A stretch of 64,000 nucleotides of DNA, taken from Escherichia coli. Its GTDB lineage: Bacteria; Pseudomonadota; Gammaproteobacteria; Enterobacterales; Enterobacteriaceae. Where the stretch lies: NCBI RefSeq assembly GCF_044324785.1, contig NZ_CP172127.1; one strand, 5' to 3'. The notes under the pieces are model-generated. The model worked only from the letters and a program-made list of their open reading frames with translations, was not told where the DNA came from and made no database searches. Positions 29,599-49,310 of the stretch are shown here, piece after piece. Position 1 is the stretch's first letter; every line of letters starts with the position of its first letter. The translations under genes were made by a program, and so were the position numbers.

Positions 29599-30747
29599 AT
29601 GAGTGATATTATTTACCTGAACATAACCGGAGAACAACAAGGATGTATTTCCTCTCGTTGTGGAACGAGCGCATCAATAGGTAATCGCTGGCAGATTGGC
29701 CATGAAGATGAAATCTTCGCGTTCTCGCTCTCTAATAGTATTACGAATACAGGCAAAGGGTCACAATTGCATGGCCTTAGTTTCTGTAAATTGATTGACA
29801 AAAGCTCCCCGTTACTTATTAACGCTATTAACAATAACGAGCAGTTGTTCATGGAGTTTGACTTCTATCGGATCAATAGATTTGGTCGATGGGAGAAATA
29901 TTACAACATTCAACTTCGCGGCGCGCTCTTATCAGCAATCAATCACCTGTTTACTGAGAACAATCTGGATACAGAAACCATCACTGTCAGTTATGAATAT
30001 ATACTCTCCAGGCATCTGATTGCTAATACTGAATTTAGTTATTTGGCATTTCCCGATAACTACAACCGTCTGTTTATACCACGGCCAAAAACTAAAGATG
30101 ATAATGGCCTCAAAACACTCAATAGTAAAGCGGTTGGCAGACTGCTTGCTGCTGGCGGCATATACAATGGGAATATCGAAGGATTCAGGGAAACAGCAAA
30201 CAAGTTGGGAGGAGATGCACCTGCTGGTTACGATCAAGTTATGGATAACAAAGGGTTACTCATCGCTGGTGCTTCAATAGTTGCTGGAGTTGTTCTGGGA
30301 AGAATGAGATTCCCTGATTTGGAATCACTTGAGCATTTCGGAGCCAGAGGAGCAGTATCAGGAAGACCATTTAATCCCGACCTTGCCGGTGGTCCAATAG
30401 AAAATCTGACGACAGATGGCGTAACAATCAACAGGGAAGGTATCGCTATTGTTGAAAAACACATAGCCAGATTTGGTCATGACCCTGTAAATGAAGTGAT
30501 GATCAATAGACTGAAAGACATTGAGAAAGGAAAAATCCCCCCAGAACAAGTAGATCTTAACTTCTATACTCATGAATGTCGGGAATATCAGCGTTACTGT
30601 AATCTTGGTTGGGAAACAGGACAACCTGATGGTGACGCAGGCTATGCACTCTGGAATCATACGCATACTGCTACTCTAGAAGATTATAAACTTAAGGGAG
30701 AACTTAATGACTTATACCACCAGGATGCACTTGACTATGATAACTGA
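29599..30747 (+). CDS. Hcp (T6SS tube protein, TssD) fused to a ~230-aa C-terminal extension; putative Hcp-ET-type effector, toxin domain unassigned
   Basis: 382-aa ORF with RBS AAGGA; N-terminal ~150 aa show Hcp1-family hallmarks (IYLNITGEQQG...TGKGSQLHGLSFCKLIDKSSPLLINAI...FMEFDFYRIN...EKYYNIQLRGA...TITVSYEYI); C-terminal part has no motif I recognise. Confidence 0.7.
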   Translation: MSDIIYLNITGEQQGCISSRCGTSASIGNRWQIGHEDEIFAFSLSNSITNTGKGSQLHGLSFCKLIDKSSPLLINAINNNEQLFMEFDFYRINRFGRWEKYYNIQLRGALLSAINHLFTENNLDTETITVSYEYILSRHLIANTEFSYLAFPDNYNRLFIPRPKTKDDNGLKTLNSKAVGRLLAAGGIYNGNIEGFRETANKLGGDAPAGYDQVMDNKGLLIAGASIVAGVVLGRMRFPDLESLEHFGARGAVSGRPFNPDLAGGPIENLTTDGVTINREGIAIVEKHIARFGHDPVNEVMINRLKDIEKGKIPPEQVDLNFYTHECREYQRYCNLGWETGQPDGDAGYALWNHTHTATLEDYKLKGELNDLYHQDALDYDN

Positions 30748-30982
30748 AACTGAAATTAACGTACTGAAAGTTATGGCTGAGAAAGATATAAACTGGAACT
30801 GGATGAATCTCGATCGCACACTATCTATAAGGCAAATTCCAGGATTCGGTAATGTTGTTAACATTGTTAACAAATTAGCTAACGAGGGTTTGGTTATTAT
30901 TGAGGATAGCGGACATAAGTCTATGCCTCACTACCACGTTACTGAAAAGGGATACAATCTCGTGAAAAGTGAGAATAAATAA
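30737..30982 (+). CDS. Small cytoplasmic protein, candidate cognate immunity protein (possible winged-helix fold)
   Basis: ATG at 30737 overlaps the 3' end of the Hcp-fusion gene by 11 nt (translational coupling); 81 aa, no signal peptide. Confidence 0.5.
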   Translation: MITETEINVLKVMAEKDINWNWMNLDRTLSIRQIPGFGNVVNIVNKLANEGLVIIEDSGHKSMPHYHVTEKGYNLVKSENK

Positions 30983-40669: not shown

Positions 40670-41128
40670 TTAGCGTCTGGCTGGATAATGTTGGATGCTG
40701 GATTCCAGATTTGCCAGGATCAAAGCGACATCGGCATCCGCCAAACGAAATTCCGCCTGCCATATATTCTCTGACGTATGAAATGTAGGGCATAGCCCGC
40801 AAGCCAGTATCACTTTGATAATAATGACATCACCGGAATACCCTGTGTATTCGAACTCCAGGCATGGCTCGGTAAATTCCAGATTTTTCTCCGGGTAGCC
40901 ATCGGGAGAAGGGCGCTGCAACAATGTGGTAAACCACCTATGAAGCTTTGTTAAGTCATATGTCCCTATTGCCGGATCTATCTTTTCAAACCGCTGATTT
41001 CCCTGCGTCACGCCCACTTTGAGGAATAACCAGTTACCATCCCAGAAATTACTGGCATCAGGATACTGATACCCCATAACATCCAGCGTCAAAGTAACGG
41101 CCAGCTCACTATTGCTTAACGTAATCAT
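40670..41128 (-). CDS. Hypothetical 152-aa cytoplasmic protein between pldA and recQ
   Basis: Intact ORF with ATG start, no obvious SD, own terminator; no recognisable motif. Confidence 0.5.
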   Translation of the reverse strand: MITLSNSELAVTLTLDVMGYQYPDASNFWDGNWLFLKVGVTQGNQRFEKIDPAIGTYDLTKLHRWFTTLLQRPSPDGYPEKNLEFTEPCLEFEYTGYSGDVIIIKVILACGLCPTFHTSENIWQAEFRLADADVALILANLESSIQHYPARR

Positions 41129-43714: not shown

Positions 43715-44095
43715 ATGTTACGTATGTTTATCCCAACATCTAATGGTAAGATTTCCAGACGCCGTTATATATTTTCATTTATTTTAATAAATTTCATTTT
43801 TGCCTTTCTTATTATCTTTTTTAACGATGGGGAAGCAGATTTTCTTGTTATAGTCTCTACCATCGTACTCCATTATCTCGTCATCAACTTGAATTGCCAA
43901 CGACTCCGTGATAGTGGTTTCGTCTATATAAAAACTTATGTTTTTGGTACATTAGCAGTATATATCATCTCTATCATCACAATGATAGCCGAAGATTTTG
44001 CCTGTTCAGGCAATGGTTCGATGATTTTTTTGATTTGTTATTTTTCCACTTTCAGTATGCTAATGCTTGCACCTACTGATTCATCAAAACAATAG
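43715..44095 (+). CDS. yigF: Small inner membrane protein YigF (DUF2628)
   Basis: [22 protein letters not shown]..., AT-rich, two TM segments. Confidence 0.75.
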
Positions 44096-44108: not shown

Positions 44109-44489
44109 ATGAGTAAGGAATATATGAACGATGGTTCATTAAGTGAAAAATGGAAATACCGATTTAATTTTTATGATCAACATGGCTTTCCAGGATTCTG
44201 GGGGGCAACACCAGAATATAAAGCAGCATTTAAAACATTAAAAGTAAGACAACGATTAACTATTCAAATGAATTTCATTGCTTTCTTCTGTTCCTGGATC
44301 TATTTATTTGTTCTGGGATTATGGAAAAAAGCAATTATAGTTCTATTACTTGGCATTCTATCTCTATTTGTTGGTGCACTAATTGGCGTTAACATTCTGG
44401 GAATTGCCGTAGCAGCCTATGTTGCTGTTAACACGAACAAATGGTTTTATGAGAAAGAGGTAAAAGGGTTAAATACCTGGAGCCTTTGA
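44109..44489 (+). CDS. yigG: Small inner membrane protein YigG (DUF2628)
   Basis: MSKEYMNDGSLSEKWKYRFNFYDQHGF...; paralogous architecture to yigF. Confidence 0.75.
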   Translation: MSKEYMNDGSLSEKWKYRFNFYDQHGFPGFWGATPEYKAAFKTLKVRQRLTIQMNFIAFFCSWIYLFVLGLWKKAIIVLLLGILSLFVGALIGVNILGIAVAAYVAVNTNKWFYEKEVKGLNTWSL

Positions 44490-44529
44490 ATAACAGGTGG
44501 CTTAGCCAGGCTAAGCCACCGCCTTCTTT

Positions 44530-44672
44530 TTACAACCAGTTCTTCCGCTTAAAGTACAGATACGGTGCCAGGCCCGCGAGGATCATAAAGATAATCGCGC
44601 CAGGGTAGCCGAAACTCCACTTCAGTTCCGGCATAAACTCAAAGTTCATGCCATAGCTGGAGGCAATCCGCG
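44530..44672 (-). pseudogene. Diverged duplicate of the corA 3' end (last ~47 codons)
   Basis: ~143 bp at ~95% identity to 46241-46383; encodes the same ...[44 protein letters not shown] with only synonymous changes; homology begins exactly at the stop codon. Confidence 0.8.
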
Positions 44673-44856
44673 TAGGAAAAAGTTTCCTAATCGGTAAATT
44701 CAACATTTTGTTATTAACAATGAGCAAGACCAATCATTAACGACGTTCTCTTCAGAGATGTAATGAAAAAATGTGAAGTGTACTTCTTTTCTAAATATTT
44801 TTTTACCCTAGCATTTGTTCTCGAATTGATATTGAGCTTAAATATAACTAAGGCAA

Positions 44857-45711
44857 ATGCAAATGAATAACATATTACTTCCGCCAATTAATATTCCCTG
44901 TACACTTTTCGAAACTATTAGTTTATTCGATGATTTTTCTGCTGATGATATGCAATATGGTGATATGGTAGAACAAGACTTTCTCTCACTCGGCCTAAGC
45001 GATATCTCAGCAAAAGTTGATCCTTACCGACTTATTAAATACCATTTCCCTGGCCCAGGTTCTATTAATGTTGCTTTTAGTGCCTCAAGTTCCGGAACAA
45101 AAATATCACAACGTGAATGCACTGATATTTTATTTGCAGAAATGAAAGAACTAGCAAAAATGTTTTCCTTTTTTGGACAATATAAAACACTTATCGAAGA
45201 TCTGATTGAAAATTTTAGATATGGAAATGGCAGCAATTTTCATAGCCAACAATTAAATTTATCTTTTCATGAAAAAATAAATAAATATGGTTATAATAGT
45301 CCAATACGAATAATCAAAGAATGTATCGAAAATGGCATTAATTCAACTCCCTCGACAGGATACCAACCTCTTATCCTGCAAAGCATTAAAACCAAATTAC
45401 TTTCATCAAGACTAAATAAATTTAATGACTTCAAGGACAGTTTTAATGGCTTAGGAATCAGTGTTCATGATATTTCAGCTCAAAAAATATCTCTTTTAAG
45501 TTTTCAAAAATACGCTATAGGATGGAGTGCAACAATTCATTTTGTAGCACAGGACCACTTCGGTCTCGATGTAACTGATATCAAAAACAAGACTTATAGC
45601 AAATATAGATTTTTTCGCATATGGTTCTTTTTACAACGGCATAAAGACTTTGCTTTCAAACCTTTTTTCACCAATTTTAACACTATAGAAAGAATCGAAA
45701 ATTATCTATGA
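44857..45711 (+). CDS. Hypothetical 284-aa protein, AT-rich, no signal peptide; candidate effector/toxin-like protein
   Basis: Intact ORF in low-GC DNA inside the corA-repeat-bounded insert; stop overlaps the start of the next gene (ATGA). Confidence 0.5.
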   Translation: MQMNNILLPPINIPCTLFETISLFDDFSADDMQYGDMVEQDFLSLGLSDISAKVDPYRLIKYHFPGPGSINVAFSASSSGTKISQRECTDILFAEMKELAKMFSFFGQYKTLIEDLIENFRYGNGSNFHSQQLNLSFHEKINKYGYNSPIRIIKECIENGINSTPSTGYQPLILQSIKTKLLSSRLNKFNDFKDSFNGLGISVHDISAQKISLLSFQKYAIGWSATIHFVAQDHFGLDVTDIKNKTYSKYRFFRIWFFLQRHKDFAFKPFFTNFNTIERIENYL

Positions 45712-46199
45712 AAAGCAAACTCCAGAAAATTATATTATGTTTATTTCTTCTATGCTGCATCTATAATTTATGGACATTGCGTCCTGTACAGATTTTGTAT
45801 ACATACTCTGATGCTGGCAATTCAGTCTTTCTGGTCGTTGATCATCTGCCATGGACTGACAGCGATAAAATAAATTGGTATCTGAAGCATCAGAATGAAA
45901 TTAAAAATCAACATCCCCTACCAGAAGGTAGTTGGCATACCTGGTATGTCATTGATATCGGTAATGGCTTCACTGACTATAAAAAATATATTGAAGGGCC
46001 GTATGAAGATCTCTACTGTTTCCCGACAATTAAGAGCAATGATAATTGCATCGTGAAAAATTACTTAATGGTTATTAATGAATACCCTTATCGTAACACT
46101 CATATTGGTATTAACGATTTTACTGAGTATCAATTAACACAAGAAAATAAAATAGAGCGAGTTTTCAATCCGCATGACTTTAAAAAAGACAATTTTTAG
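45708..46199 (+). CDS. Hypothetical 163-aa protein with N-terminal signal peptide/membrane anchor; candidate periplasmic immunity-like partner
   Basis: N-terminal hydrophobic KIILCLFLLCCIYNLW; translationally coupled to the upstream gene. Confidence 0.5.
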   Translation: MKSKLQKIILCLFLLCCIYNLWTLRPVQILYTYSDAGNSVFLVVDHLPWTDSDKINWYLKHQNEIKNQHPLPEGSWHTWYVIDIGNGFTDYKKYIEGPYEDLYCFPTIKSNDNCIVKNYLMVINEYPYRNTHIGINDFTEYQLTQENKIERVFNPHDFKKDNF

Positions 46200-46240
46200 A
46201 AATAAGCCGGATAAAAAAATAGCTTTATCCGGCACTCATA

Positions 46241-47191
46241 TTACAACCAGTTCTTCCGCTTAAAGTACAGATACGGTGCCAGGCCCGCGAGGATCATAAA
46301 GATAATCGCGCCTGGGTAGCCGAAACTCCACTTCAGTTCTGGCATAAACTCAAAGTTCATCCCGTAGCTGGAAGCAACCAGCGTCGGTGGCAGGAACACC
46401 ACGGATACCACCGAGAAGATTTTGATGATGCGGTTCTGCTCGATGTTGATAAAGCCCATAGCCGCCTGCATCAGGAAGTTCACCTTCTGGAACAGGGATT
46501 CGTTATGCGGCAGCAGGGATTCGATATCTCGCAGGATTTCACGCGCCTGCTCCAGTTGCCCACCCGGTAAGCGTGCTTTACGTACCAGGAAGTTGAGCGC
46601 GCGCTGGGTATCCATCAGACACAGGCGAACTTTCCAGCCGATATCTTCCAGTTCCGCCAGCGTGGAGAGCGCCTCGTCGTACTCATCGCCCTGATGCCCT
46701 TCCATAATTACCCGGCTCAACTGCTCCAGGTCGCTGTAGATATTTTCAATTTCATCTGCCAACTGTTCGATTTTGGTTTCGAACAGATCCAGCAGCAGCT
46801 CGTAGGCATTACCGTCTACCATCGACTGGCTACGGGCACGCATACGATACAGACGGAATGCAGGCAATTCACGCTCACGCAGAGTAAACAGACGACCATC
46901 ACGGATGGTAAATGCCACAGTGGAGTTACCGGCGTGATCTTCCGCATCTTCAAAGAAGAAGAAGGAGTGAATATGCAGGCCGTCATCGTCTTCAAAGAAA
47001 CGTGCCGATGCTTCGATGTCTTCCAGTTCCGGGCGGGTTGCCAGGCTCTGGCCAAGTTCAGATTGTACGCGCAGTCGCTCGTCGTCGTCCGGTTCGACAA
47101 GATCAATCCATACTGCATTTACAAGGGGTTGTGACTCTTCGACTTCCAGCCGGGTCAGTCGGTTATTTTCCAGTTGAAATGCGCTCAGCAT
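46241..47191 (-). CDS. corA: Magnesium/cobalt transport protein CorA
   Basis: [19 protein letters not shown]..., 316 aa, GMN motif ([12 protein letters not shown]). Confidence 0.95.
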
Positions 47192-48407: not shown

Positions 48408-49310
48408 ATGAAAAAAACGCTCGCAACGTTATTTTTATTAACGTGTCTGGGATCATCATCCGCTTATGCGGATAACGCTTTGATTTTACAAACTGATTTT
48501 AGCCTGAAAGATGGTGCCGTCTCGGCGATGAAAGGGGTCGCATTCGGTGTTGACCATAATCTTAAAATATTTGATTTAACACACGAAATTCCACCGTATA
48601 ACATCTGGGAAGGCGCTTACCGCCTGTATCAGACCGCCAGTTACTGGCCGCAAGGTTCGGTATTTGTCAGTGTGGTCGATCCTGGTGTTGGTACAGACCG
48701 TAAATCGGTAGTGCTGAAAACCAAAAACGGTCAATACTTCGTTTCACCAGATAACGGTACGCTCACTTTGGTGGCACAAACTCTGGGTATTGATAGCGTC
48801 CGGGAAATCGACGAAAAAGCTAACCGCCTGAAAGGTTCTGAAAAGTCATATACCTTCCACGGTCGTGACGTGTATGCCTACACCGGTGCGCGTCTGGCTT
48901 CCGGGGCGATTACGTTCGAACAGGTGGGGCCAGAGCTTCCTGCAAAAGTTGTCGAACTTTCTTATCAGAAAGCAAAAGCAACAAAAGGTGAAGTGAAGGG
49001 CAATATCCCGATTCTCGATATTCAGTACGGCAACGTCTGGAGCAATATCAGCGACGAGTTGCTGAATCAGGCAGGAATCAAACTCAACGACACGTTGTGT
49101 GTGACCATTTCCGAAGGTTCCCAGCAAAAATACGCAGGGAAAATGCCGTATGTCGCAAGCTTCGGCGATGTGCCGGAAGGCCAGCCGATGGTGTATCTGA
49201 ACAGCTTGTTGAATGTTTCCGTGGCGCTGAATATGGATAATTTTGCGCAGAAACATCAGGTTGCGTCTGGTGCTGACTGGAATATTGATGTGAAGAAGTG
49301 CGCTAAGTAA
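48408..49310 (+). CDS. Secreted DUF62-family protein (SAM hydroxide adenosyltransferase/halogenase-like fold)
   Basis: Signal peptide MKKTLATLFLLTCLGSSSAYA; motifs TDFSLKDGAVSAMKGV, DLTHEIPPYNI, VVDPGVGT, VSPDNG resemble the DUF62 family as I recall it. Confidence 0.65.
   Translation: MKKTLATLFLLTCLGSSSAYADNALILQTDFSLKDGAVSAMKGVAFGVDHNLKIFDLTHEIPPYNIWEGAYRLYQTASYWPQGSVFVSVVDPGVGTDRKSVVLKTKNGQYFVSPDNGTLTLVAQTLGIDSVREIDEKANRLKGSEKSYTFHGRDVYAYTGARLASGAITFEQVGPELPAKVVELSYQKAKATKGEVKGNIPILDIQYGNVWSNISDELLNQAGIKLNDTLCVTISEGSQQKYAGKMPYVASFGDVPEGQPMVYLNSLLNVSVALNMDNFAQKHQVASGADWNIDVKKCAK

Follow-up and report, generated by a model that had tools for sequence, protein, structure and literature searches.

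The question raised by the locus described here is what a small AT-rich cassette of two genes, lying beside corA in some Escherichia coli chromosomes and missing from K-12, does for the cells that carry it. The cassette was analyzed in a stretch of 64,000 nucleotides of E. coli contig NZ_CP172127.1 (assembly GCF_044324785.1), called the window throughout. An earlier note on this DNA, made from the letters alone, had recorded two overlapping open reading frames (ORFs) of 284 and 163 amino acids (aa), and their coordinates and ATGA overlap were both verified; as to function it had hesitated between an effector-immunity pair acting on the envelope and a phage-defence or abortive-infection module, and considered that the system might be uncharacterised. 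Our results indicate that the cassette is probably an orphan antibacterial effector-immunity pair of a type VI secretion system (T6SS), consisting of a DUF3289 effector and a DUF943 immunity protein and placed away from the T6SS cluster. This assignment is made because of family membership, homology of fold, the topology of the two proteins, purifying selection on both genes, and the presence of a T6SS cluster in a nearly identical strain, N3.

The longest ORF of the first gene occupies 44857..45711 on the plus strand and would encode 284 aa, but translation likely starts instead at a second ATG at 44863, the start chosen by RefSeq, which lies 8 nt past a Shine-Dalgarno-like AAGG (44851-44854) and yields a gene of 44863..45711 (+) and a protein of 282 aa, the form on which residues are numbered here. 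This protein matches PF11692 (DUF3289) over its full length (E 4e-83, model positions 2-270 of 272) and TIGR03034, named 'YPO3983', at 435.7 bits against a cutoff of 156.45; a literature search on 'YPO3983' turned up nothing. In a library holding one representative per 50%-identity cluster there were 450 relatives, occurring in three forms: some stand alone at about 280 aa, others are extended at the N-terminus to about 400-450 aa, and in the longest only the C-terminus matches, corresponding to residues ~85-280 alone. Residues 1-85 are thus shared by the stand-alone and PAAR-fused forms and missing from the long fusions. An alignment of 57 sequences, built with the window effector as reference, showed D29, H232, F233, G234, D239, W254, L257, Q258, and P267 to be invariant and D231, L235, and D236 nearly so. 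A PAAR domain, absent from the window protein, was fused to DUF3289 in 9 of these 57 relatives, and other partner domains among them were peptidase M23, SH3b, PG_binding_1, peptidase M14, a glycoside-hydrolase-like domain, and an eCIS core domain; such fusion partners suggest delivery by contractile injection and a target in the cell wall.

The second gene (45708..46199, +; 163 aa) starts on the stop of the first, with the two overlapping by 4 nt as ATGA in translational coupling, and its product matches PF06092 (DUF943; E 1.8e-26, model positions 1-150 of 151). The view that neither protein carries an assignable motif is therefore replaced by full-length Pfam or NCBIfam family matches for both. 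The same order, DUF3289 followed by DUF943, was found in O157, PCN033, Salmonella, Enterobacter, and Trabulsiella, and an overlap of 1 or 4 nt between effector and immunity genes is kept across genera. A single hydrophobic stretch at about residues 5-27 (Kyte-Doolittle 19-residue maximum 1.79) is preceded by K2, K4, and K7, and the predicted model of the protein has a helix at residues 2-24, as of an N-terminal anchor followed by a predicted periplasmic domain; C104, C114, H46, and W57 are invariant.

Structural comparison also pointed to a T6SS complex. The AlphaFold2 model of the effector was confident (pLDDT 90.5, pTM 0.87), and its top match among solved structures was 9jdi_A (Foldseek E 2.8e-12), the C-terminal domain of the T6SS effector BtpeA of Bacteroides fragilis crystallised with its immunity protein BtpiA. 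The DUF3289 family profile matched 9jdi_A at E 4.8e-36, with the motifs DHFGLDxxD, FRxWFxLQ, and KPF in common, and the effector and immunity proteins of the window are fold homologues of both partners in the BtpeA-BtpiA complex (PDB 9JDI, 9JG8, 9JG9). The two systems nonetheless differ, since BtpeA has 608 aa with DUF3289 at its C-terminus only and is served by a dedicated adaptor, BtapC (PMC13402684), whereas the E. coli protein stands alone at 282 aa with no adaptor neighbouring its gene, and identity is only 18-22% between the effectors and 11% between the immunity proteins.

Relatives with experimental data lead in the same direction. A PAAR-DUF3289 protein from a T6SS operon of Yersinia pseudotuberculosis was toxic to E. 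coli in the periplasm only, where it caused rounding of the cells (PMC11148199), and was neutralised by its DUF943 partner (PMC11148199, Mol Syst Biol 2024); that study suggested a homologous relationship with colicin M and left T6SS-dependent secretion still to be shown (PMC11148199). In this pair, T6EC1-T6IC1 of Y. pseudotuberculosis IP32881, DUF3289 precedes DUF943 as in E. coli, and T6IC1 has a topology like that predicted for the E. coli immunity protein, with a transmembrane helix at ~7-26 and the remainder periplasmic (PMC11148199), but T6EC1 is a specialised, PAAR-fused effector within a T6SS operon whereas the E. coli effector is an orphan without PAAR. For the way in which the E. coli effector would be used, the best precedent is WP_042032936.1 of Aeromonas jandaei DSM 7311, a DUF3289 effector which, like the E. 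coli gene, lies outside the main T6SS cluster (PMC12135965, PLoS Biol 2025), a likeness drawn from the published description; this orphan protein was part of the T6SS-dependent secretome, and competition assays validated it and the gene downstream of it as effector and immunity protein (PMC12135965). Further reports describe DUF3289 and DUF943 in Klebsiella as often linked, T6SS-associated families, a putative Enterobacter effector adjoining VgrG with DUF3289 and M23 peptidase domains, and, from Pantoea, orphan PIX effectors whose listed C-terminal toxic domains include DUF3289. The DUF3289 family, its DUF943 partner, and a crystal complex are thus already published and the corA-linked E. coli copy is an added member, so the suggestion of an uncharacterised system has been outdated at the family level since 2021-2025 (PMC11148199; PMC12135965; PDB 9JDI), while the option of an envelope-acting pair gained support from the family matches, the folds of the T6SS complex, and these tested relatives. 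Our literature search found no paper on the corA-linked E. coli DUF3289/DUF943 pair, and in the searchable literature T6SS-dependent secretion is not reported for any E. coli DUF3289 copy.

Judged by substitution rates, both genes of the cassette are under purifying selection. For the effector, dN/dS was 0.11-0.21 overall, 0.16 when old alleles within E. coli were compared, and 0.115 in comparison with Salmonella; for the immunity gene it was 0.13-0.45 overall and 0.13-0.15 over longer distances. Both ORFs were intact in four divergent lineages, i.e. the window, O157:H7, PCN033, and Salmonella. The window itself spans 64 kb, and evidence for a T6SS cluster comes from strain N3, which is 99.9% identical to the window over the cassette. 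The N3 cluster, at aspV (NZ_CP031609.1 4726488-4753340), contains tssB, C, E, F, G, J, K, L, H, and M together with two hcp genes, vgrG, and rhs, and the tssC type of N3 occurs in 2263 of 5426 E. coli genomes, a marginal count taken apart from that of the cassette. To this T6SS context the window adds an intact gene of its own for an Hcp-toxin fusion, described below.

Several observations weigh against an orphan T6SS pair. Export of the E. coli effector would be presumed from relatives of no more than about 40% identity. Pfam assigned DUF3289 alone to the effector and no PAAR, VgrG, Hcp, MIX, or FIX marker, with PIX and WHIX models not covered, and the RefSeq neighbours of the pair are yigF, a corA fragment, and corA, with no adjacent T6SS, adaptor, or carrier gene. 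The AT-rich leader 5′ of the effector gene (44677..44862, +) gave no site in a sigma-70 scan, and manual reading found hexamers at the wrong spacing. Finally, the annotation of N3 shows frameshifts in tssA, a VasL-domain gene, and rhs; the machine may be inactive in that strain, or these frameshifts may be assembly errors, which bears on whether orphan effectors could be fired there.

It is against this background that the most serious alternative has to be considered, which is that the pair is kept mainly for defence, conferring immunity against DUF3289 effectors of other Enterobacteriaceae, while its own effector is rarely or never delivered owing to an inactive T6SS or a missing matching carrier. 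The frameshifted genes of N3 and the orphan state of the pair, with no carrier gene adjoining, would fit such a role, as would retention in the same window of a stand-alone WapI-family immunity gene without a toxin. However, the effector itself is constrained (dN/dS 0.16, and 0.115 against Salmonella) and intact in the four lineages, which would be unexpected if the immunity gene alone mattered, and we regard a mainly defensive module as unlikely.

Should the reading as an orphan T6SS pair hold, a course of events may be proposed for the cassette. The 282-aa DUF3289 protein, which has no signal peptide, would be made in the cytoplasm, loaded as cargo on the spike or tube of the T6SS, and delivered by injection to the periplasm of nearby Gram-negative cells, there to damage cell-wall synthesis, most likely by cleaving the lipid-linked precursor of peptidoglycan, as colicin M does, with the invariant acidic and histidine cluster D-H-F-G-L-D-x-x-D. 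The co-translated DUF943 protein would be anchored through a single N-terminal helix in the inner membrane of the producing cell and of its kin, with its disulfide-containing domain facing the periplasm, where it would bind and block the incoming effector. Through homology to the tested relatives, the periplasmic or cell-wall site of action and the logic of immunity are well supported; secretion of the E. coli effector, the identity of its carrier (VgrG, PAAR, or Hcp), and its chemistry on lipid II are steps that we only infer.

Members of the colicin M family (colicin M, PaeM, pectocins M1 and M2, and syringacin M) cleave lipid II in the periplasm in a Mg2+-dependent manner, and Cmi is the immunity protein of colicin M. 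Colicin M-type bacteriocins were the nearest folds to the effector outside its own family, at Foldseek E of 0.06-0.1. Comparison of the DUF3289 family profile with colicin M by hhalign, using a sequence 100% identical to 2xmx_A, was not significant, and one non-significant local alignment sets effector H232 on colicin M H235. A search of PDB with the family profile returned no colicin M-type protein, and the phmmer link to colicin M consisted of pectocin M2 alone (E 0.62), over a non-catalytic stretch. The catalytic motif of colicin M is reportedly DxYDx5HR (D226, Y228, D229, H235, R236), and this was not evidently conserved in DUF3289, in which the family-invariant motif is DHFGLDxxD. Because the DUF3289 signature of DHFGLDxxD, W-x-x-L-Q, and K-P-F does not match that catalytic motif, a chemistry other than that of colicin M is possible, and the chances that the effector cleaves lipid II seem about even. 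Published support for such cleavage in the family consists of the cell rounding seen with the Yersinia protein.

The same resemblance could be taken to mean that toxin and immunity protein work by a route other than the T6SS, either released, as a bacteriocin would be, by lysis or in vesicles, or acting as an addiction module inside the producer. Colicin M-type bacteriocins are indeed released and imported without a T6SS, and the 282-aa protein has no detected T6SS marker domain. On the other hand, no N-terminal receptor-binding or translocation domains such as those of colicin M-type bacteriocins were detected in the effector, a lysis gene is missing from the cassette, PAAR fusions recur among the homologues, and the characterised relatives are T6SS substrates (PMC12135965; PDB 9JDI title); an addiction module, moreover, would be ill-served by a cytoplasmic toxin and a periplasmic immunity protein. 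A non-T6SS route is, in our estimation, unlikely, and less probable than the defensive role discussed above.

The cassette is common in the species. With presence defined as coverage of at least 80% of a 1.9-kb query, no fewer than 2636 of the 5426 complete genomes of E. coli carry it, and at least four arrangements of the rarD-corA interval occur. In K-12 MG1655 the order is rarD-yigG-yigF-corA without the cassette, in agreement with the absence from K-12 given in the earlier note. In the window and in strain N3 it is rarD-yigG-yigF-corA'-effector-immunity-corA, where corA' is a fragment of corA, and the junction yigF-corA'-effector was present in 297 genomes. In O157:H7 and many others, rarD is followed by a 104-aa membrane ORF, a divergent 128-aa yigG-like ORF, and corA'-effector-immunity-corA. 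In the PCN033 type, rarD is followed by the first ~88 bp of yigG and then by effector-immunity-corA without corA', with proteins 85.5% (effector) and 94.5% (immunity) identical to those of the window. The pair also occupies the same position in Salmonella enterica of the houtenae, arizonae, and salamae lineages, as rarD-effector-immunity-corA, with an effector 63.7% identical to that of the window. The presence of the pair at rarD-corA in Salmonella as well marks the site as an old polymorphic hotspot, and a simple insertion relative to K-12, as first supposed, does not account for that presence or for the E. coli arrangements.

The breadth of this distribution bears on whether the cassette is instead a decaying remnant without current function. 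The cassette does adjoin a corA pseudogene fragment, an insertion of IS1 lies beside it in some genomes (H15), and no promoter was detected. However, at least four divergent lineages keep both ORFs intact, dN/dS is well below 1, and the pair is kept in about half of the 5426 genomes and at the same site in Salmonella, which makes a remnant very improbable. An anti-phage defence or abortive-infection module, which would share with the cassette only the generic features of a small, AT-rich, accessory two-gene unit at a variable locus, can hardly be entertained, as neither protein matched PADLOC at E up to 1, both have the folds of a T6SS complex, and no genuine phage or plasmid copies were found. 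The plasmid search (tblastn) returned 8 records, of which the two close E. coli matches were chromosome-sized (1.0 and 4.8 Mb) and filed as plasmids and the remainder were distant homologues, 25-38% identical and mostly on large replicons; in the phage collection the sole matches were Salmonella houtenae genome contigs. Separately, in an Enterobacter sp. (Logan SRR11948719, L008 4499-7319) two DUF3289-DUF943 pairs were found in tandem at an unrelated locus, between fadH-like and sugar-kinase genes, the first effector copy being shorter (225 aa); this suggests that DUF3289-DUF943 arrays grow through duplication or through acquisition of one pair after another.

An orphan T6SS effector-immunity pair with this distribution would have consequences for competition among E. 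coli. About half of complete E. coli genomes, O157:H7 among them, have the pair, and K-12 and many laboratory strains have neither gene. If the effector is fired by an E. coli T6SS, the cassette would be a common determinant of strain-on-strain killing in the gut and would provide a simple genetic reason for vulnerability of cassette-negative strains. As a stand-alone protein, it would also offer a tractable E. coli model for how an orphan cargo is recognized by the T6SS and for whether DUF3289 cleaves lipid II. The interest of the locus rests on its frequency in E. coli together with its absence from K-12, on unusually old effector alleles at a hotspot shared with Salmonella, and on the stand-alone form of the effector.

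How the cassette came to its position may be read in part from the flanking DNA. The order of genes at the site is pldA(-), yigI(+), rarD(+), yigG(+), yigF(+), the cassette, corA(-), yigE(+), and uvrD(-). The cassette had been placed between yigG and corA, of which corA is indeed a neighbour, but on the other side the neighbour is yigF, RefSeq giving the order rarD-yigG-yigF. GC content in the cassette (44600-46250) is 0.28-0.37 compared with 0.52-0.56 in corA, in line with the low GC that had been noted, and the low-GC tract begins at ~43550 and takes in yigG and yigF, so the AT-rich block exceeds the indel relative to K-12. That indel is 1711 bp, made up of 1564 unique bases (44677-46240) and one copy of a 147-nt repeat. 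The location of the cassette is chromosomal, with neither integrase nor transposase annotated by RefSeq beside it at this locus.

The direct repeat of the corA 3′ end that had been noticed at the edges of the cassette is real and diverged, with 44530-44673 and 46241-46384 being 95.1% identical over 144 nt (E 1.7e-62). Its left copy, corA' (44530..44676, -), consists of the last 48 codons and stop of a corA allele; it is labelled by RefSeq as an incomplete CorA-family pseudogene, and the identical fragment type is present in O157:H7. The right copy is the last 147 nt (46241-46387) of the intact corA (46241..47191, -; RefSeq), a gene 97.7% identical at the nucleotide level to that of K-12 and encoding a protein 100% identical to K-12 CorA. 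Aligned in frame, corA' differs from the resident corA 3′ end at 8 positions, 6 of them synonymous, and this mostly synonymous divergence suggests that two diverged functional corA alleles were joined by recombination as opposed to decay following duplication. To the left of corA', yigF and a bidirectional terminator-like hairpin with an 11 bp stem (44496..44520, 3′ of both yigF and the corA fragment) track the K-12 yigF-corA junction, the hairpin being by alignment the K-12-type intergenic one; a second terminator-like hairpin (46206..46233, between the stops of the immunity gene and corA) is, by alignment, unlike the K-12 hairpin downstream of corA. Both hairpins were located by a terminator scan.

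On the evidence of these sequences, corA' is a recombination scar at a long-standing polymorphic rarD-corA site. The exchange would have been anchored by corA homology on one side and completed on the other by an illegitimate join 147 nt before the corA stop. The 147-nt repeat would in turn permit loss of the cassette in one RecA-mediated step, restoring exactly the K-12 arrangement, and informative sites in the repeat copies are too few to tell insertion from deletion. Synonymous divergence between the window and PCN033 was 0.447 for the effector compared with 0.067 for corA and 0.073 for rarD, indicating that effector alleles are either much older than the flanking genes or imported. As a minor observation, corA' stays open as a 67-aa frame (44530-44733, -, TTG start), in O157:H7 as well, which would encode the CorA GMN motif and the last transmembrane helix.

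A bolder extension would hold both that rarD-corA is a long-lived balanced polymorphism common to Escherichia and Salmonella and that stand-alone enterobacterial DUF3289 proteins are possibly a new enzyme class acting on cell-wall precursors; taken jointly, we consider the two doubtful, if somewhat more probable than any of the rival accounts of the pair. Under a balanced polymorphism, effector-immunity alleles much older than the genes around them would persist, and yigG and yigF might be conflict-related too, for example as orphan immunity genes. These two genes (yigG 43715-44095, yigF 44109-44489) encode small membrane proteins, have low GC (0.31-0.34), and lie in the same hotspot. They are replaced in the O157 type by the 104-aa membrane ORF, which is on the other strand, and the divergent 128-aa yigG-like ORF (NF008474, E 5.5e-6), and in PCN033-type genomes the ~88 bp of yigG are all that is retained.

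Other variable genes occur elsewhere in the window. The region 29599-30982 (+), between ysgA and metE, contains an intact 382-aa ORF that begins with an Hcp/TssD domain (residues 1-147 by TIGR03344, E 2.9e-36; residues 6-135 by Pfam T6SS_HCP) and has a C-terminal extension of ~235 aa without an assigned family, followed and overlapped by a 91-aa ORF (30707-30982). This region looks like a second orphan T6SS module, comprising an Hcp-toxin fusion and a candidate immunity gene; the window strain differs here from N3, in which the counterpart of the Hcp-fusion gene carries a frameshift and the annotation of a tssD pseudogene. Between recQ and pldA, the WapI-family gene mentioned above (40670-41128, -) encodes 152 aa with a match (E 6.5e-22) to the WapI-like immunity family of Pfam, and its RefSeq annotation is WapI family immunity protein; with no toxin gene alongside, and with no gene annotated in the recQ-pldA gap of O157:H7 or PCN033, it looks like an orphan immunity gene. 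Lastly, between yigE and uvrD at 48408-49310 (+) there is a 300-aa gene assigned by annotation to the SAM hydrolase/SAM-dependent halogenase family, with a signal-peptide-like N-terminus, absent from K-12 MG1655, where yigE is followed by uvrD, and present in O157:H7 and PCN033.

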